Position numbers and translations under genes: made by a program. A stretch of DNA of 64,000 nt from an uncultured Methanosarcinaceae archaeon (GTDB lineage Archaea; Halobacteriota; Methanosarcinia; Methanosarcinales; Methanosarcinaceae): assembly GCA_963847185.1 (NCBI GenBank), contig CAWJYV010000007.1, forward strand, positions 640,001 through 704,000. Reading direction: 5' to 3'. A model generated the notes under the pieces. The model was not told where the DNA came from. It made no database searches and saw only the letters and a program-made list of their open reading frames with translations. Shown here in pieces: positions 19,374 to 52,669 of this stretch (its first letter is position 1; every line of letters starts with the position of its first letter).

Positions 19374-22247
19374 ATGACATTTCATAACGCATTCAACTCT
19401 TTTCATCCGAAAATTCAGGAAGCTCTCAAAATCCTTGGCTTTACAAAGCCCACGGAGCCTCAGGAAAGGGCTTTTCCTCATATAATGGATAGGAAACACA
19501 CCTTTTTGATAGCCCCTACAGGTTCTGGCAAGACTGAATCAGCCGTGCTGCCTGTTTTTCACAGCATCCTGAAAAAGAAGCCTGAAGCCAGAAGGGGAAT
19601 TTCTGCCCTCTACATAACTCCTCTCAGGGCCCTTAACAGGGATATGCTTTCCCGCATCGAGTTTCTCGGAAAATTGCTTGATATCAAAGTGCAGGTCAGG
19701 CATGGAGATACCCCGCAGAGTGAGAGGCAGCGTCAGTCCAGGAATCCGCCTGATGTCCTGATTACAACACCTGAGACCTTGCAGGCGATGTTTACCGGCT
19801 CTCGTCTGAGGCAGAACCTGGAAACAGTAACCCATGTTGTTATAGATGAAATTCACGAGCTCGCAGGCTCAAAACGAGGAGCCCAGCTGGCTGTGGGGCT
19901 TGAGAGACTTGTGGAGATTTCAGGAGAGTTTCAGAGAATAGGGCTCTCTGCTACAGTCGGAAACCCCTGGGAGATTGCAAAGTTTCTGGCAGGAAATGGA
20001 AGGGATTTCACTGTCATTGAAGTAGCCCTGCTCAAATTGCTGGAATTCGATGTGGTCAGCCCTCAGGTCTCGGACGGAGGCGAGATACGGGAGAAAGAAG
20101 TGCTTGAAATTGCAAATAAGGCGGGCTGCGAGCCAGAATTTGCATCTCATCTCCTTTGTATCAGGAAAATTGTGGATGAAAGCCAGTCCACTCTTATTTT
20201 TGTTAATACGCGGCAGAGTGCCGAAGCTCTGGCTGCCGGTTTTCGGAAGCTGGAAGCATCCATAGGTGTTCACCACGGTTCTCTTTCTTTTGAAGCCCGT
20301 GTGGAAGCTGAAGAGGCTTTCAAATCTGGAGCCTTAAGAGGACTTATCTGTACTTCTTCCATGGAACTTGGAATTGATATCGGAAATGTTGACCGGGTAG
20401 TCCAGTACGGATCTCCAAGGCAGGTTTCAAGGCTGCTCCAGAGAGTCGGGAGAGCAGGACACAGGTTGCATGAAATCTCCCGGGGTACTATTATTTCGAT
20501 GGAAGTGGACGATACTGCAGAGAGTATGGCGATTACTAAAGCTGCACTTGAAGGCAGGGTTGAAGAGGTTTCCCCGCACATAAAATCTCTGGATGTTGTG
20601 GCAAATCAGATCGCAGGCATGGTTATGGACTTCGGGGAGGTCGAAATCGAGAAGGTTTTCAAGGTTCTTCGAAGGGCTTACCCTTTCAAAGACCTGCAAA
20701 TTGAAGAGCTGCAGAGAGTTGTTGACCAGATCGGGGATTACAAGCTTGTCTGGCACGAAAAAGGCTCAAGAATACTGAAAAAGCGCAGGAAAAGCTGGGA
20801 ATATTATTACGATAACCTTTCCATGATCCCGGACGAAAAGAAGTACGAGATTTACGATATTGTGAGCGGAAGGCCAGTAGGAGTGCTGGACGAAGCCTTT
20901 GTTGTGAATTTTGCAGAACCTGGTGCCGTTTTTATAACAAAAGGTTACATGTGGCGCGTCATTGAGATGCCTGACCCGGGCCGAGAACAGGGAAAGGACA
21001 GGATCAAGGTCGAGCCTGTCGAGGGAATGGGAGAAGTCCCAAGCTGGACAGGCGAAGAAATCCCCGTACCTTTTGAGGTGGCTCAGGACGTAGGAAAGCT
21101 CAGGGGAGAAATTGCAACTCTTATCCATGCAGAATTCGACGATGAAGCCATTGCAGAGAAGCTGCGGATAAAATATCCTGTTGCAAGGAATGCTGTACTT
21201 GACCTGATACGCCTTATCCGCGACCATGTAGAAGGAGGCTTCCCCCTTCCAGATGCGGCTACAATAGTTATAGAAGACGAAGGAGACGCCGTGACCCTGA
21301 ACGCATGTTTTGGCCACAACACAAACGGCACCCTTGCCAGAGTCCTGACCTCTCTCCTCTCAGCCCGCTTCGGGAGCAGTGTAGCCCAGGAAGTGGACCC
21401 CTATAGGATAAGACTGACTCTTCCCAGGCGTGTCGGCCCTGTTCAGATTCGGGACATGCTTCTCTCCCTCCGTCCGGAACACGTTGAACCTATTATCGAA
21501 ATGACCCTGAAAAACACAACTGTCATGAAATGGAAAATGGTCCATGTGGCAAGAAAGTTCGGAGCCCTCTCCCGCGACGTTGACCACGACAGGATAAGCA
21601 TGAAAAAGCTCCTTGAGATCTACGAAGGCTCTTCCATGTACGACGAGGTCATCCGCGAGATCTTCCACGACCTGCTTGATGTCCCCAGGGCAAAAGAAGT
21701 CCTTACAAAACTTGCAGCCGGTGTAATTTCAGTCGAGGTATCCGGCCCGACCCCCATCGGTTCATCTGGCTTTGCCATGAAAAAAGACCTTGTAGCTCCT
21801 GAGAAAGCCGACCGTTCAATTGTCCTCGCCCTTAAAGAGCGCATTATGAACGACAAAATCATCCTATTCTGTACGAACTGCAAGAAATGGACCTCCCGCC
21901 GCCAGGTGAAAGGCGTCCCTGAAGAAATCATCTGCCCTGTCTGCGATTCCCAGATGATTGCAGCCCTCAAACCCTGGGAAGAAGAAGAAATCAATCTCGT
22001 TAAAAAACAGGCAAAAAACGTCAAAGTCACCCCCGAAGAAAAGAAACGCATCCAGCGCGTCTACAGAAACGCAAGCATAGTCCGCTCCCAGGGAAAGAAG
22101 GCAGTTATTGCGCTTGCCAGCAGGGGAATCGGGCCTGAAACTGCATCAAGGGTAATTGAAAAGATGAGGGTGGATGAAGAGGCGTTTTACAGGGATATTC
22201 TGGTTGCAGAAAGGAATTATGTAAAAACGAAGAAGTTCTGGGAATGA
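19374..22247 (+). CDS. lhr: Lhr-family ATP-dependent helicase with C-terminal Zn ribbon
   Basis: [52 protein letters not shown]; CTNC...CPVC. Confidence 0.92.
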
Positions 22248-47455: not shown

Positions 47456-48161
47456 TCTTCACAAGAACTTCGGAAATTTGAAAGTCCTTAAAGGAATCAC
47501 TGAGAAGATTGAAGACAGTGAAGTGGTCTGTATAATTGGCCCTTCAGGGTCCGGCAAAAGCACTTTCCTCCGTTGCTTGAACCTCCTTGAAACCCCTACT
47601 TCCGGGGATATCTGGATTTATGGGGAAAAGATCACATCCCCTACTGTTAATATAAACAAAATCAGGGAAGAAGTAGGCATGGTTTTCCAGCGCTTCAACC
47701 TTTTTCCTCACATGACTGCTCTTAAGAATGTAGCTCTTGCCCCGATAAAGGTTCGTGGTATTTCCGAAAAAGAAGCTTACGACCGTGCCCGTGATCTCCT
47801 TAAAAAAGTAGGGCTTGAGGATAAAGCCGATGTCTATCCCAATTCTCTTTCCGGGGGTCAGCAGCAAAGGGTTGCAATCGCCAGAGCTCTTGCCATGCGT
47901 CCCAAAGTCATGCTTTTTGATGAGCCCACATCTGCTCTAGATCCTGAAATGGTCGGAGAAGTCTTAAACGTCATGAAAAGCCTTGCAAAAGAAGGCATGA
48001 CAATGGTTGTCGTGACACATGAAATGGGTTTTGCCAGGGAAGTAGGGAATCGAGTACTTTTCATGGATGACGGTATCATAGTCGAAAAAGGGACACCCCA
48101 CGAAATCTTCTTTGATGCTCAGAATGAAAGAACAAAGTCATTTTTGAGCAAGATTTTGTAA
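47439..48161 (+). CDS. Polar amino-acid ABC transporter ATPase (GlnQ-like)
   Basis: [28 protein letters not shown]. Confidence 0.95.
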
Positions 48162-48448
48162 AGTTTTACTTAATCTAGGTTCCCTTTTCAGATATTTGCG
48201 TCTCAATATTTTAAAATACAATTGAAAAATTCTTTAGCTGGCTAGATTTATGCGGAAAGTATTTCCTGGATTGAAATAAACGAAATATCATACCCTGGGT
48301 TGTAATGTTAGTAGCAATACTGAAATTAAATCAAGCTTTAATAAGCTAACTCAAGTTTTAAGGTCCATTATTTACTAGCTTATTGGGGAGCGAAAAATGG
48401 GGTATCTATGTTTCTACCTCTGTGTTAAAAATTATTATATTTACTGAG

Positions 48449-48777
48449 TTTGTTTGATGGAGTTGAGCCTGAGGTCATAGATAAGGTGAAAAATTGTTGA
48501 AGGTGTTTGCGAAATTACAGACCTCAGAGCCCGCTGGATTGGCCCCAGGCTCCATGTAGAGATCAATGCTTCCGTTTTCCCTTCGCTTTCTGTTAAAGAA
48601 GGGCACGACATTGCTAACGCGATAAGAGAAAAGCTTCTGGAAAACTTTTCTCACCTTTCAGGTACTACTATTCATGTAGATCCCCTTACAGCTTCAGGAG
48701 AGTGCTGTCACTGCGGGCTTGAAAGTTCTGAAATAAGGCATGTGAAAAATACACATATTTTAAATGTTCACTCATAA
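48449..48777 (+). pseudogene. C-terminal remnant of a cation diffusion facilitator (dimerisation domain)
   Basis: LFDGVEPEVID, then shifted frame VEGVCEITDLRARWIGPRLHVEIN...LSVKEGHDIA...TIHVDP*; no TM part or start codon. Confidence 0.75.
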
Positions 48778-48890
48778 TGAAGTTAATGAAATATCAGTTT
48801 CTTTCCGATCCGTCATGATTTTTACTTCTTACTTTTTTACGTTTGCTGCCTGAAGCTTTTATTTATCTCTTTATTTGTCATGCTGTTTTG

Positions 48891-49559
48891 TCATGCTGTA
48901 AACACTACGTCTACTCTTTCTACATCCCACAAAGACCCCAGTTTTTCCATAATGTCTTCTTTTATTGCAGATGCAAACTGGTGATCTGCGGGCAGGTCTA
49001 CGACCACTCTAATCACTCCGTTTTCAACACTTGTTTTCAGGATAAGATTTGTACGGATTATGTCCAGGCCGGTTAGCGGGTTCATTACATGCTTAAGCCT
49101 ATTCCTGATAACTTCCTCTGTCGTAGGCTCCTTTTCGGTAACAAGTCCGTGCTTTTCTTCATAGTCTCTGATTGCAGCACGAAGACCCTCAACTGCAAGC
49201 ACTGAGCAGTGGGCTTTAATCGGAGGCAGCCCTCCAAGTTCTTCAGAAGCCTGTTTCCAGGTTATTTTTTTTGCTTCATCAAGAGTCTTTCCACGTGCCA
49301 TATCTGTTATAACCGAACCTGTAGCGATATTTGAAGCACAGCCATAAGATTCGAATTTTATGTCCTCAATAACCTTTGTGTCAGGATTGACCTTAAGATA
49401 AACTGCAACCATATCCCCGCATGCAGGGCTTCCTTCAAGACCTTTCCCATCAGGATTTTCTATTTTTCCTACGTTATGTGGATTCCTGAAATGTTCCAGC
49501 ACTTTTTCAGTGTAAGGAAACTTTATTGTTTCACTTTTCTCTTTGCGTTTAATCTCCAT
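48891..49559 (-). CDS. iscU: IscU/NifU-N Fe-S scaffold with C-terminal DUF59-like domain
   Basis: YTEKVLEHFRNPHN, PACGD, YGCAS, LPPIKAHCS; LKHVMNPLTGLDII. Confidence 0.9.
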   Translation of the reverse strand: MEIKRKEKSETIKFPYTEKVLEHFRNPHNVGKIENPDGKGLEGSPACGDMVAVYLKVNPDTKVIEDIKFESYGCASNIATGSVITDMARGKTLDEAKKITWKQASEELGGLPPIKAHCSVLAVEGLRAAIRDYEEKHGLVTEKEPTTEEVIRNRLKHVMNPLTGLDIIRTNLILKTSVENGVIRVVVDLPADHQFASAIKEDIMEKLGSLWDVERVDVVFTA

Positions 49560-49608
49560 TTTCCGACCTTCTTTTATCCTGATTTCTTATGTTTCCTTTA
49601 TTTTCAGT

Positions 49609-50775
49609 TCATTTTCTTGCAAGGGGACTTATTTCTCTAAGCTTTGCCACAATCTCACTCATGGCATCAATAGCCGCATCGACATCTTCCATCTTATTGT
49701 ATCGTCCGAAGGTAAAACGAACTGATCCATGAGCTCTTTCATGATCTCCTCCAATACCCCTTATCACATGGCTGGCTTCAAGGGAGCGGCTAAAGCAGGC
49801 TGAACCTGTACTTACTGCAAACCCTCTCATGTCCATATGCAGAGTAACAGATTCTCCTTCTACATAGTGGAAAGTCAGGTTTGCGTTCTGTGGCAGGCGT
49901 TTTTCTCGGCTCCCATTGAGGGTAACATCCGAAATTTCGGAAAGGGCTTTCTCGATTACCCTATCTCTCATGGCTTCAAGCCTTCTATTTTCTTCTTCAG
50001 TTACGAGTTCTACTGCCTTTGAGAAACCTACGGCCCCTGGAATATTTTCCACTCCAGCCCTCAGGTTGAACTCCTGAAAACCTCCGTCCATAAATTTACT
50101 TATTGGCGTGTCTTTTCTGATGTAGAGAGCACCTACTCCCCTGGGGCCATGAATGGTGTGGGCTGACATAGTAACCAGATCTACGGGCAGTTCCTTCACA
50201 TTGAGGGGAAGCCGGGTAAAACTATGGGTGGCATCCGTATGCAAGAGCACATCTTTTTCTTTGCAGATCTCTGAAATAAGCTTCAGATCCTGCACTGTTC
50301 CTATTTCCTGGTTTCCATGCTGGATTGAGACAAGGATTGTCTCTTTTGCGATCGCTTTTCTTAGTCCTTCGAGGTCTACAAACCCATGTGCGTCTACGTC
50401 CAGGAAAGTTACGTCAAATCCCTGTTTCTGGAGAGCTTTTGCCGTATTCAGGACAGGAAAATCCTCTATTTTTGAGACAATAATATGCTTGCCTTTTCTT
50501 TCTTTAAGGGCCCAGGCCACTCCTTTAAGAGCAGTGTTGCTTGACTCCGTATCTCCAGAAGTGAAAATTACCTCGTTTGAATCAGCGCCGAGTCTTGCAA
50601 TTATACTTTCGCGTGATTTTTCGAGCCCTTCTTTTGCATCCAGGCCCATTGAATACCCAAATTCAGATGTTGCTACTGCATAGGTCTCAAAAAAATAAGG
50701 TTGCATTGCCTCAAGCACCCTTTCATCAAGACGGGTGGACGCAGCATTGTCAAGATAAACTATATTCTCAAATAT
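49609..50775 (-). CDS. iscS: IscS/NifS-like cysteine desulfurase homolog lacking the PLP lysine
   Basis: VYLDNAAST, FTSGDTESSN, HTDATHS, SAHTIHGPRG (K replaced by T), STGSACFS; start placed at ATA 50775 after GAGGAGGGG. Confidence 0.88.
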   Translation of the reverse strand: MFENIVYLDNAASTRLDERVLEAMQPYFFETYAVATSEFGYSMGLDAKEGLEKSRESIIARLGADSNEVIFTSGDTESSNTALKGVAWALKERKGKHIIVSKIEDFPVLNTAKALQKQGFDVTFLDVDAHGFVDLEGLRKAIAKETILVSIQHGNQEIGTVQDLKLISEICKEKDVLLHTDATHSFTRLPLNVKELPVDLVTMSAHTIHGPRGVGALYIRKDTPISKFMDGGFQEFNLRAGVENIPGAVGFSKAVELVTEEENRRLEAMRDRVIEKALSEISDVTLNGSREKRLPQNANLTFHYVEGESVTLHMDMRGFAVSTGSACFSRSLEASHVIRGIGGDHERAHGSVRFTFGRYNKMEDVDAAIDAMSEIVAKLREISPLARK

Positions 50776-50965
50776 TTTTTCCCCTCCTCAGATTAAATAG
50801 ATCTTCTACTTTATAATTAAATTTCAAGTTTACAATTAAATTTTGAGAATTATCGGATAGGATTCTAAACACGTTATTTGCTGAATATAACTGATTAAGA
50901 ATTGAAACAAATCAAATAGAAATTCGGACTGCCATAATAACCTAAGCCTTAAAAATTCCTAATAA

Positions 50966-51385
50966 TCAAATAAATAGAGTTACGTTAGCATCTCTTGCTT
51001 CATGGATGTAAGACCCTACAGCTCCCCACTCATCTATCCATTCCGTTCGGAGTTCTTCTTTCTTTATGCCCATAATTTCCATGGTCATTTCACAGGCGAT
51101 TATCTTTCCGCCAAGTTCTTTGAAATCACTCATGAGCTTTTCAAGTGAAGCAACGTTGGCTTTGTCCATTCTCCTTTTGACCATCCACCTTCCAAGTCCA
51201 AGCATGTTCATCTTGGAAAGAGGCCCCTTCTCAAGTTCTCCTTTCTTTAACCTCATTAGTCCCCAGAAAGTGAAGTATATCGAGGCTTCCATCCCCATTG
51301 CCAGGGCACCGTTCCCAATTATAAGTGCACTGTATACTTTGTCCATGTCTCCACTGTGCAAAACAATAACTGTCTTTTCCCCCAT
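50966..51385 (-). CDS. DsrE/DrsE-like sulfur-relay protein
   Basis: SGDMDK, SIYFTFWGL, IIACEMTM. Confidence 0.88.
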   Translation of the reverse strand: MGEKTVIVLHSGDMDKVYSALIIGNGALAMGMEASIYFTFWGLMRLKKGELEKGPLSKMNMLGLGRWMVKRRMDKANVASLEKLMSDFKELGGKIIACEMTMEIMGIKKEELRTEWIDEWGAVGSYIHEARDANVTLFI

Positions 51386-51404
51386 TTTCCTTCCCCTTTC
51401 GGTT

Positions 51405-51632
51405 TCACCTGCGGATCTTTATCTCCCACTCTTTACCTCCCTCTTTGTCTTCAATTTCCAGTACCTTGAATCCCATTGCCTCACAGGCCATAGGAATTTC
51501 TTTTTTTGATGCCGGATGCGTACCCTTTACAATTACAAGATCTCCTGGAGAAGCTTTTTTTAATGCTTTTCTGCACTCCACCAGTGGAACAGGGCAGGTC
51601 TGCTTGCGGACGTCTATTTCTATTTCTGCCAC
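51405..51632 (-). CDS. TusA/SirA family sulfurtransferase
   Basis: IDVRKQTCPVP (CPxP motif), 75 aa. Confidence 0.88.
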   Translation of the reverse strand: MAEIEIDVRKQTCPVPLVECRKALKKASPGDLVIVKGTHPASKKEIPMACEAMGFKVLEIEDKEGGKEWEIKIRR

Positions 51633-51662
51633 TTTCTCACCCCCAAAGCAAGAGAAATGAAA

Positions 51663-51698
51663 GAATCATGACACATTTCTGCCGTCTGTTCATGATTC
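51663..51698. promoter_or_regulatory. Inverted repeat upstream of tusA
   Basis: GAATCATGA ... TCATGATTC between a TATA-like sequence and the RBS. Confidence 0.4.
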
Positions 51699-51786
51699 AG
51701 TAATCTCGAAAAATATGTCACGGTTTTATATTGAAAATATTATTTGGAAATAACCCTTAATATTCTTATTCTAAATTATTTTCTCT

Positions 51787-52206
51787 TCAGAGTGCTCTCC
51801 TTATTTTCTCTGCAATCTCTTCCATATTTGTAGTGTCAGGTTCGGTCCATACTATTGATTTTATTCCTCTTCCTCCATCTCCCTTCTTTCTTGGAATAAT
51901 ATGTACGTGTACGTGAGGAACTTCCTGACCGGCAACTTTCCCATTATTGATGCCAATATTCGATCCTTCTGCCGAAAATGTTCTCTCGACTGCAATTGTA
52001 ATTTTCCTTGCAGCTTCAAAAAGCGAGCCGACTCCTTCTGCATCCATGTCCTTGAATGAGTTAAAATGTTTTTTAGGAGCTACGAGAGTATGGCCTTCGC
52101 TTGCCGGGTGAATGTCCAGAAATGCAAAAGTGGAGTCGTCTTCATATATCTTATTCGAAGGAATTTTTCCTGCTATTATTTTACAAAAAAGGCAATCTTC
52201 TGTCAT
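51787..52206 (-). CDS. HIT family hydrolase
   Basis: DCLFCKI, AGQEVPHVHVHIIPR. Confidence 0.93.
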   Translation of the reverse strand: MTEDCLFCKIIAGKIPSNKIYEDDSTFAFLDIHPASEGHTLVAPKKHFNSFKDMDAEGVGSLFEAARKITIAVERTFSAEGSNIGINNGKVAGQEVPHVHVHIIPRKKGDGGRGIKSIVWTEPDTTNMEEIAEKIRRAL

Positions 52207-52357
52207 AACTGTATCCCCTTAGAGGTTTAAGAGGTACACTTATATCAGGGTTCTGTATCTTCCTTAATTTATTGTTGGACTTTGAGACTAAGATTCTGAC
52301 AAGATCAACTGTAAATACATTTCCAACTCTAATATTTATCAGGAGAGTGAATTTTTC

Positions 52358-52669
52358 ATGATTGGTTATATTGCAGGAGCGCTAACAACCATAGCTTTTG
52401 CTCCCCAGCTTTTAAAAGCCCTGACAACAAAATCTACAAAAGACGTATCTCTTATGATGTTACTCTGCTCAACTTCAGGCATGTTTCTCTGGCTCTTTCA
52501 TGGGATTCAGGTGAATGATCCCGCAATTGTCGTAGCAAACAGCATTTCTGTAGTACTTGCTTCCTTACTTCTGGGGCTCAAAGTCAAGAATGATTATGCC
52601 AATCATGTTTTCAAGTCTAATCGAGATCTTAGGAAGTCCAAAAATAGTTTTCTTTCTTCTCGAAAGTAG
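52358..52669 (+). CDS. SemiSWEET/PQ-loop transporter
   Basis: IGYIAGALTTIAFAPQLLK, TKDVS, LWLFHG, IVVANS; 3 TM helices. Confidence 0.87.
   Translation: MIGYIAGALTTIAFAPQLLKALTTKSTKDVSLMMLLCSTSGMFLWLFHGIQVNDPAIVVANSISVVLASLLLGLKVKNDYANHVFKSNRDLRKSKNSFLSSRK

Follow-up and report, generated by a model that had tools for sequence, protein, structure and literature searches.

Gene content of the iscS1 locus

The 64,000-nt window analyzed here (contig CAWJYV010000007.1, positions 640,001 to 704,000, from assembly GCA_963847185.1 of an uncultured Methanosarcinaceae archaeon) carries five co-oriented minus-strand genes, which read from 5′ to 3′ as a HIT-family gene, tusA, a dsrE-like gene, an iscS-like gene (iscS1), and a gene encoding an IscU scaffold fused to a DUF59 domain (iscU1). 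The last four form the cassette considered in this study, whose central member, IscS1, is an IscS homolog lacking the lysine that binds pyridoxal 5′-phosphate (PLP). All coordinates are positions in the window, and all cassette genes lie on the minus strand (Table 1). A preliminary description had placed iscS1 behind tusA and the dsrE-like gene in the same orientation; this arrangement was confirmed, and the 190-nt dsrE–iscS gap was reproduced when iscS1 was started at an ATA codon.

Table 1. Genes, motifs, and key residues of the iscS1 locus
Feature	Position	Strand	Description
tusA-like sulfur carrier gene	51405..51632	-	75 aa, GTG start; predicted active Cys13 in CPVP 51585-51596
DsrE2-like (DrsE_2 family) protein gene	50966..51385	-	139 aa; candidate active Cys98 in ACEM 51086-51097
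dsrE/iscS1 spacer	50776..50965	.	190 nt, AT-rich; GGAGGGG at its end
iscS1, group-I IscS homolog without PLP lysine	49609..50775	-	388 aa; ATA start 50773-50775
iscS1, key codons			Thr207 50155-50157 (ACC); Asp105 50461-50463; loop Cys327 49795-49797
iscS1, motifs			SAHT 50155-50166; IED 50461-50469; AVATS 50665-50679; GSAC 49795-49806
iscU1, IscU scaffold (aa 16-137) and DUF59 domain (aa 148-218)	48891..49559	-	Cys47, Asp49, Cys74, His117, Cys118, LPPIK; cysteines within PACGD, YGCAS, AHCS
HIT-family gene, upstream neighbor outside the cassette	51787..52206	-	Pfam HIT, E 1.5e-31

Pfam assigned IscS1 to Aminotran_5 (PF00266, E 6.4e-64), with a match spanning residues 2–348 of the 369-aa open reading frame (ORF) that begins at GTG, equivalent to residues 21–367 of the 388-aa protein. 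IscU1 matched NifU_N (E 3.8e-42) and FeS_assembly_P (DUF59, PF01883; E 7.2e-13, 49.1 bits against a cut-off of 23.5, residues 148–218), the dsrE-like product matched DrsE_2 (PF13686; E 2.1e-37, 128.9 bits against 25), and TusA matched PF01206 (E 9.8e-21, 73.8 bits against 28.6). All four proteins scored below every NCBIfam equivalog cut-off: IscS1 reached 439.4 bits with the NifS model (cut-off 530.75) and 389 and 385 bits with the IscS models (548 and 643.2, respectively), the DsrE-like protein reached 63.2 bits with DsrE2 (cut-off 210), and TusA remained below the TusA, YedF, and YeeD cut-offs. The nearest solved relatives of TusA were the YeeD/TsuB domain 8K1R (E 2.6e-13) and TM0983, and those of the DsrE-like protein were 3PNX and 2QS7, the latter named DsrE2B (PMC11094781).

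The same 4.04-Mb genome also encodes a canonical IscS (SAHK, IEH, and GNPSS motifs) with a plain IscU, as well as a SufS-like enzyme with the Lys and Cys motif. The iscS1 locus is a second, divergent ISC-type system of the host genome.

Lost and retained residues of the IscS1 active site

The replacement of the PLP lysine by Thr (SAHT, codon ACC at 50155-50157), central to the preliminary description, was verified to the base, as was that of the PLP-stacking His by Asp within IED. In a HMMER alignment with Archaeoglobus fulgidus IscS (4EB5, E 1.5e-100), the Thr stands opposite Asp199, and in the D199K variant 4R5F it stands opposite the introduced Lys. Alignments to solved IscS structures run over the full length, placing IscS1 in the class-V aminotransferase fold. 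Two further PLP-site changes were found, Gln to His (DATH) and Thr to Val (RAGVEN), at columns where the host's own canonical IscS reads DAVQ and RAGTEN, next to its IEH, SAHK, and GNPSS. We take the altered contacts to be Gln183 and Thr243 in the numbering of E. coli IscS. IscS1 thus lacks both the Schiff-base lysine (S-x-H-K) and the PLP contacts that define a group-I desulfurase, and it retains the persulfide-loop cysteine (S-G-S-A-C). This cysteine (Cys327 in STGSAC), the three IscU cysteines, the CPVP motif of TusA, and the ACEM motif of the DsrE-like protein are all intact, as originally reported.

The preliminary description had also listed AVATS in place of GNPSS. The motif is present, but it is not a mark of PLP loss: AVATS or AVASS also occurs in lysine-bearing members of the subfamily, and AVATS is a signature of that subfamily and not of decay. 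Its use as a sign of PLP loss was rejected, since lysine-bearing members read AVASS.

From its residues, IscS1 is predicted to be incapable of forming an internal aldimine with PLP and, therefore, not to be a cysteine desulfurase. Public records call the lysine-less protein a “cysteine desulfurase” or a “homocysteine desulfhydrase”; its sequence supports neither activity.

Conservation within Methanosarcina and its family

The names carried by near-identical proteins assign the window to Methanosarcina. The locus is a direct ortholog of the isc1 cluster of M. acetivorans, in which Deere et al. (2020) described IscS1 (MA0808) and IscU1 (MA0807), and the gene order is the same: HIT, SirA/TusA, DrsE, IscS1, and IscU1 (PMC7585200). 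The window IscS1 is 88% identical to the M. acetivorans protein. Deere et al. reported that IscS1 lacks the catalytic lysine, that it might act like A. fulgidus IscS or may be non-functional, and that it was insoluble when produced alone in E. coli; they characterized only IscS2/IscU2 (PMC7585200). The legend of their Fig. S1 lists MA0809 (DrsE superfamily), MA0810 (SirA-like), and MA0811 (HIT) as “genes of unknown function” and proposes no role; the DUF59 fusion and the ATA start go unmentioned in the accessible text of the paper (PMC7585200).

An iscS1 ortholog was found in 23 of the 24 other Methanosarcina genomes sampled and in 56 of the 58 genomes of the genus covered by the family search. 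All 24 aligned Methanosarcina sequences have Thr at the lysine site, together with Asp (once Glu) for the stacking His, His for Gln, and Val or Ile for the Thr of RAGTEN. The same substitutions recur at 20/20 loci from six further genera, giving 44 orthologs from seven genera, with Lys at the site in none and Thr throughout. A strain-specific decay, the outcome against which the preliminary description had asked for this comparison, is therefore refuted. The frame is intact in 44/44 orthologs, and the pairwise ratio of nonsynonymous to synonymous substitution rates (dN/dS) against the window was 0.058 for iscS1, 0.041 for iscU1, 0.043 for dsrE, and 0.054 for tusA; these ratios are approximate, as dS was near saturation (~0.9 for tusA and 1.2–1.4 for the other three genes). 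The substitutions are fixed under strong purifying selection and do not represent decay.

A decaying, non-functional copy of iscS, the possibility raised by Deere et al., would account for the loss of an essential lysine and for the non-standard ATA start. We regard its probability as negligible, since it is contradicted by the conservation data: the intact frames, the low dN/dS, and substitutions fixed across seven genera and in other phyla. Moreover, IscS1 is marked as detected in the M. acetivorans proteome (Table 1 in PMC7585200). The pattern of conservation points to IscS1 being a conserved, working protein.

Between the upstream stop codon and the invariant YLDN of iscS1 there is no in-frame ATG, GTG, or TTG, and the start codon is therefore ATA. 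It lies seven bases behind GGAGGGG, and public annotations of 384 or 388 residues fit this start. ATA was found in 24/24 Methanosarcina orthologs and in both loci of the sister genus g16; among the 18 loci of the other five genera, all 15 with readable upstream codons have ATG at or beside this position (MFDK..., MLDK...), the other three being from genus g21. Fixation of a weak start codon throughout the genus suggests translation tuned to a low level. As estimated from tblastn coordinates, the dsrE–iscS1 spacer measures ~119–306 nt in Methanosarcina, 215–319 nt in g16, and at most ~50 nt in g15, g21, g23, and g24. No RNA contig bridged this spacer in three metatranscriptome runs from two studies, which recovered small shares of the stretch. 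RNA contigs at 90% likeness cover pieces of all five genes, although such contigs are no proof of transcription.

Intact tusA and dsrE precede iscS1 at 19 of the 23 other loci of the genus; the four exceptions are a contig end, a split dsrE, a deleted dsrE, and a decayed relic. In the other genera of the family, the pair lies upstream at 16 of 20 loci, with the short spacers of the four genera named above and with overlapping iscS and iscU. Cys98 is kept in the window DsrE and in all six cassette DsrE proteins aligned with it. Across the family, iscS1 and a matching dsrE co-occur in the same 7 of 16 genera, a pattern rather than a test, as related genomes are non-independent. IscU1 is the sole IscU match in genus g18 and in three of five sampled g21 genomes, and IscS1 is the sole group-I IscS homolog in the four g18 genomes and one g21 genome searched. 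The pair is therefore not a spare copy in these lineages.

Distribution of the cassette beyond the family

Among the 150 nearest representatives at 50% identity, 22 lack the lysine. In a first tree, the supported group containing the query comprised ten representatives, of which nine lack the lysine, and it was separate from the A. fulgidus-like P0134 group. A scan with the closest outgroup, P0123, recovered 16 loci from WOR-3, Acetothermia, Fraserbacteria, Cloacimonadota, Aerophobetes, Brevinema, and Thermoplasmatota, where IscS is followed by an IscU–DUF59 fusion, usually with tusA and with or without dsrE. Twelve of these 16 loci keep both Lys and His, and they also read AVASS, IHGPKG, and ITGSACFS.

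When metagenomes were scanned with a fusion-protein alignment, 80 loci were recovered. The lysine column was readable in 63 of them and held Lys in 6, Leu in 20, Thr in 36, and Ala in 1, making 57/63 lysine-less. At the stacking column, His was present in all six Lys-bearing loci and Asp in 52 of the 53 readable lysine-less ones. The IscS loop cysteine was kept in 67/67 readable loci. Where at least 900 nt were available on both sides (n = 43), IscS was detected at 43 loci, TusA at 43, and DsrE at 38. The co-occurrence survey suggested in the preliminary description thus shows that conserved linkage to tusA/dsrE extends well outside the genus; a second, independent lysine-less clade, described below, has it too.

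Two gene orders were observed, tusA-dsrE-iscS-iscU at 23 loci and iscS-iscU-tusA-dsrE at 46, with tiny spacers or overlaps between the genes. The flanks of these 69 loci are variable; recurring neighbors are rubrerythrin (10 loci), an Nfu-type carrier (5), and an Rrf2 regulator (5), in keeping with Fe-S biogenesis and redox stress. A search for a fifth conserved gene among the 69 loci found none, the commonest neighbor family occurring at 6/69.

Cys13, Pro14, and Pro16 of TusA are invariant in 59 cassette sequences. In ten diverse fusions, the three cysteines, the Asp, His117 (H106 in the numbering of the first sequence of alignment A1), and LPPxK of the IscU part are likewise invariant, and the DUF59 part has no invariant Cys. 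Outside the family, a phylum sample of 401 genomes contained only one IscU–DUF59 fusion, L068 (G456:C1:650146-660736). This fusion is 47% identical, has an internal TAA reported by the genome search, and lies at a locus with no IscS homolog within 5 kb.

IscS phylogeny and repeated loss of the lysine

Of 145 IscS sequences placed in a tree, the 93 encoded beside an IscU–DUF59 fusion group into one clade (support 1.0). It includes a lysine-less clade of 73 members (support 0.895) with a long stem and Asp at the His column; among the remaining 20, 17 retain Lys and three, scattered between them, lack it (L074, L204, and L078). The position of the 17 lysine-bearing members outside the large lysine-less clade, together with the three scattered losses, indicates that linkage to TusA preceded loss of the lysine, which was lost at least four times within the DUF59 clade. 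Methanosarcinaceae IscS1 is monophyletic (0.965) and sister to Thermoplasmatota and metagenome sequences of the same gene order (0.833). The large lysine-less clade has fixed (1.00) Asp105, His184, and Tyr41 at the columns occupied by His, Gln, and His in plain IscS, which suggests a pocket that was remodeled rather than eroded.

A second lysine-less clade of Archaeoglobus type

The phylum sample was also searched with an Archaeoglobus-like representative, A. fulgidus itself lying outside the examined genomes, and flanks of 1.5 to 5 kb were scanned with TusA and DsrE profiles built from sequences gathered in this analysis. The search recovered 17 loci from eight families, in which a plain IscU accompanies an IscS with SSND (Asp in place of Lys) and an unchanged stacking His. 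All 17/17 loci have a tusA and/or dsrE-family ORF as their immediate upstream neighbor in the same orientation: both genes in 11, tusA alone in three, and dsrE alone in three, two of the latter at a contig or locus end. Pfam confirmed the two families. In contrast, profile matches were found beside 0/66 lysine-bearing plain IscS loci, and two further loci of unverified residue state were negative as well. A coupling between TusA/DsrE and lysine-less IscS thus has good support.

Loci with Gln at the lysine column had tusA in one of five cases (L106, where it follows iscU). This group (L106, L108, L115, L121, and L129) consists of IscS homologs from Eubacteriales and Aminicenantes metagenome-assembled genomes, with the stacking His kept and a plain IscU next to them.

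In an enlarged tree, the Archaeoglobus-type clade (20 leaves, support 0.88) is not sister to the DUF59 clade (95 leaves, support 1.0), and the smallest clade holding both comprises 160 leaves and includes lysine-bearing plain IscS. Orthology of Methanosarcina IscS1 and A. fulgidus IscS was rejected, as they fall into separate supported clades in two trees. The DsrE encoded upstream at Archaeoglobus-type loci is shorter and divergent, with 25–30% identity to the window DsrE. Genome G225 has one such IscS(Asp)–IscU locus (L271), preceded by a shorter dsrE-like gene of its own.

The fixed residues of the DUF59-linked proteins could also mean that the former PLP pocket was rebuilt for another ligand, such as a metal held by Asp105, Asp181, His184, and His206, residues which, extrapolating from E. 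coli IscS, we presume to surround the cofactor. IscS1 would then have a new task such as iron delivery, besides or instead of sulfur relay. We consider this very unlikely. New residues fixed in 73 sequences do indicate a pocket that was reshaped and not abandoned, and the 59 cassette IscS sequences compared show no variation at Asp181 and His209 and next to none at His206. However, this argument is drawn from sequence columns and not from structure or geometry, A. fulgidus IscS binds pyridoxamine 5′-phosphate (PMP) or PLP non-covalently (PMC8918507), and the Archaeoglobus-type clade keeps the stacking His, so a metal site would not be general to lysine-less IscS.

Relation to known systems

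A literature search for the cassette and the hypothesis attached to it, with subscription journals outside its reach, found only Deere et al. (2020). The locus is thus already published, and the cassette, its spread, its lysine-bearing forerunners, and the Archaeoglobus-type parallel are undescribed in the searchable literature.

The best solved match is the A. fulgidus IscS–IscU complex (4EB5, 4EB7, 4HVK; D199K variant 4R5F), which likewise lacks the Schiff-base lysine. According to a 2022 review, this IscS is inactive, its loop cysteine ligates the [2Fe-2S] cluster of IscU, and the source of sulfur is an open question (PMC8918507). The A. fulgidus type differs in having Asp and not Thr at the lysine site, in keeping the stacking His and GNPSS, and in its IscU without DUF59.

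E. coli IscS/IscU/TusA (3LVJ, 3LVL) and the TusA–TusBCD/DsrEFH relays share the protein families, the group-I IscS fold, a CPxP TusA, and the passage of persulfide from cysteine to cysteine. However, E. coli IscS is a PLP-dependent source and TusA an acceptor, which takes sulfur from IscS in competition with IscU (PMC2854127, PMC11302665), whereas the cassette has a lysine-less IscS, and we propose the reverse flow. Its genes also lie in one predicted operon, and its TusA is nearer to YeeD/TsuB than to E. coli TusA.

Like the MIS system MisS–MisU (Garcia et al. 2022), the cassette pairs an IscS-like and an IscU-like protein of anaerobic archaea and bacteria, without chaperones or ferredoxin. 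MIS “does not contain additional components” (2026 review, PMC13066941), while the cassette has TusA, usually DsrE2, and DUF59, and most of its IscS members are lysine-less; it therefore falls outside the two-component definition of MIS. Adjacent tusA–dsrE pairs are also known from the DsrE2B/DsrE3A–TusA thiosulfate and persulfide relays of sulfur oxidizers such as Metallosphaera cuprina, the family of 2QS7 and 3PNX, which are the structures nearest to the window DsrE-like protein; in Metallosphaera, DsrE3A passes thiosulfate to TusA (PMC11094781). Such relays feed dissimilatory sulfur oxidation (sHdr, rDsr), whereas the methanogen pair studied here is linked to an Fe-S scaffold.

Proposed sulfur relay and its alternatives

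On balance, and with some caution, we favor a relay in which sulfur passes from TusA, with or without DsrE2, to the loop cysteine of IscS1 and on to IscU1–DUF59, because tusA/dsrE accompany lysine-less IscS in two clades and the lysine was repeatedly lost after linkage to TusA, a pattern that an acceptor-only role of these proteins does not predict. IscS1 would most likely form the usual complex with the scaffold IscU1, and its flexible loop Cys327 would serve as both a persulfide station and a cluster ligand, as in the A. fulgidus IscS–IscU structure. Cys13 of TusA would hand in the sulfane sulfur that PLP chemistry no longer provides, assisted in most lineages by Cys98 of the DsrE2-like protein, and the DUF59 domain would probably pass on the finished cluster. 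The preliminary description had proposed that sulfur arrives through DsrE/TusA from an inorganic source and passes through IscS1 to IscU without a need for cysteine. The part of this proposal that stands is the linkage of TusA/DsrE to lysine-less IscS, which is conserved in two clades; we infer the physical contacts, the direction of flow, the passage through the loop cysteine, the inorganic origin of the sulfur, and the independence from cysteine. A complex prediction for two copies of IscS1 with TusA, based on 59-row alignments, scored 0.07 against a mark of 0.32, which gives no verdict either way.

Several observations, collected in this and the next two paragraphs, weigh against the relay. 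The host encodes a lysine-bearing IscS–IscU pair and a SufS-like enzyme, and even g18 and g21 keep one or two SufS-like enzymes with Lys and Cys, so sulfur from cysteine could enter the cassette in trans. In addition, 17/93 DUF59-linked IscS proteins keep Lys and His; the original neighbor of TusA/DsrE was therefore an apparently active desulfurase, which could have used them as acceptors. Both facts accord with an alternative in which TusA and DsrE2 are acceptors (for thiolated tRNA, molybdenum cofactor, etc.), as E. coli TusA is, and the cassette began with an active IscS. In lysine-less lineages, a SufS-like enzyme or IscS2 would then load the relay from cysteine, leaving IscS1 as a mere docking platform. 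We judge this unlikely: it offers no reason for tusA/dsrE adjacency to track lysine loss (17/17 and 43/43 versus 0/66), it leaves at least four lysine losses after TusA linkage unexplained, and an acceptor without its donor would be expected to quit the operon.

DsrE presents a second difficulty for the relay. In Methanosarcina, dsrE survives as a relic with 4–10 stop codons in six genomes, has been deleted from one, and is split or truncated in two. In all nine genomes (G018, G172, G173, G175, G176, G163, G150, G019, and G005; loci L229–L237), iscS1 and iscU1 are intact; tusA carries a single in-frame stop in G018 and G005 and is undamaged in the other seven. Since 5/43 metagenome cassettes also lack dsrE, DsrE is dispensable. 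The nine genomes constitute natural knock-outs for gauging the need for this protein. Decay of dsrE beside retained iscS1/iscU1 would also be expected if IscS1 were only a structural partner and cluster ligand and free sulfide entered the scaffold directly, with TusA/DsrE2 in a regulatory or protective role (sulfane buffering or gating of IscS). Sulfide, which is abundant in methanogen habitats, is the source suggested for A. fulgidus IscS–IscU (PMC8918507) and for the SMS system (PMC13066941), and a rubrerythrin neighbor at 10/69 loci is consistent with protection. We nevertheless find direct sulfide entry quite improbable, as tusA is present in 43/43 flanked cassettes with an active cysteine invariant in 59 sequences, purifying selection on tusA and dsrE is as strong as that on the scaffold gene, and retention of the IscS loop cysteine in 67/67 loci argues that this residue is in use.

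The remaining points against the relay concern gene linkage. In g18, tusA–dsrE is absent from the vicinity of iscS1 at 4/4 loci. The genus keeps dsrE elsewhere in 13/13 genomes; in G077, the one genome whose region was inspected, it forms a tusA–dsrE dicistron, and comparison of coordinates in G077, G071, and G068 places the pair ~100 kb or more from iscS1. Given the long spacer of Methanosarcina (119–306 nt) and the ATA start, coupled expression can be regarded only as putative. Furthermore, the closest tusA–dsrE2 pairs of other archaea (L056 in G225 and L058 in G395, 50–60% identity) lie directly behind three DsrE/DsrF/DsrH-like genes, with no IscS or IscU near either pair.

Beyond the window, we offer the following general scenario more tentatively, as a plausible but less than probable account. 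Lysine loss would be a repeated end-point: TusA/DsrE would have been gained first, and desulfurase chemistry, having become dispensable, would then have been lost at least five times (at least four in the DUF59 clade and once in the Archaeoglobus type). The Fe-S clusters of many anaerobes, archaea and bacteria alike, would accordingly be built on IscU with relayed sulfane sulfur instead of cysteine, and the rebuilt Asp105/His184 pocket may also bind a metal.

Flanking sequences and other features of the window

The HIT gene was considered as a cassette member and rejected, since it lies upstream only in Methanosarcina and in genera g16 and g15; among the loci sampled, it is not kept upstream in g18, g21, g23, g24, or other phyla. 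Downstream of iscU1, the stretch at ~48450-48770 on the minus strand lacks a long ORF, its overlapping frames reaching just 56 and 59 aa, and keeps 76–86% nucleotide identity at 8/23 loci of the genus. It may be a counterpart of the conserved hypothetical MA0806 or a non-coding element. An Rfam scan of 48000-52400 returned no family, only a sub-threshold AniS match (23.8 bits against 50) that was dismissed.

In the g18 genome G077, the tusA–dsrE dicistron is followed by a 496-aa ORF (L268 4656-6146) with N-terminal paired CxxC motifs, the rest of which, by eye, resembles a glutamate synthase FMN domain. Elsewhere in the window, positions 20001-22000 have a G+C content of 0.497, against 0.31–0.44 in the rest, and could hold an rRNA or another structural RNA gene.

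Implications

An immediate consequence concerns annotation: lysine-less genes carry desulfurase or desulfhydrase names although, from their active-site residues, their products appear incapable of such chemistry. Fe-S biogenesis is usually presented as beginning with a PLP-dependent cysteine desulfurase, and reviews of 2022 and 2026 still treat the origin of the sulfur used by lysine-less IscS–IscU as a question to be answered (PMC8918507, PMC13066941). If the proposed relay is true, the sulfur source of A. fulgidus-type IscS–IscU would become answerable from the adjoining genes, and the presence of the cassette in a genetically tractable methanogen makes the question of the sulfur source directly testable. 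The relay would then represent a further sulfur route into Fe-S clusters for anoxic, sulfidic habitats.

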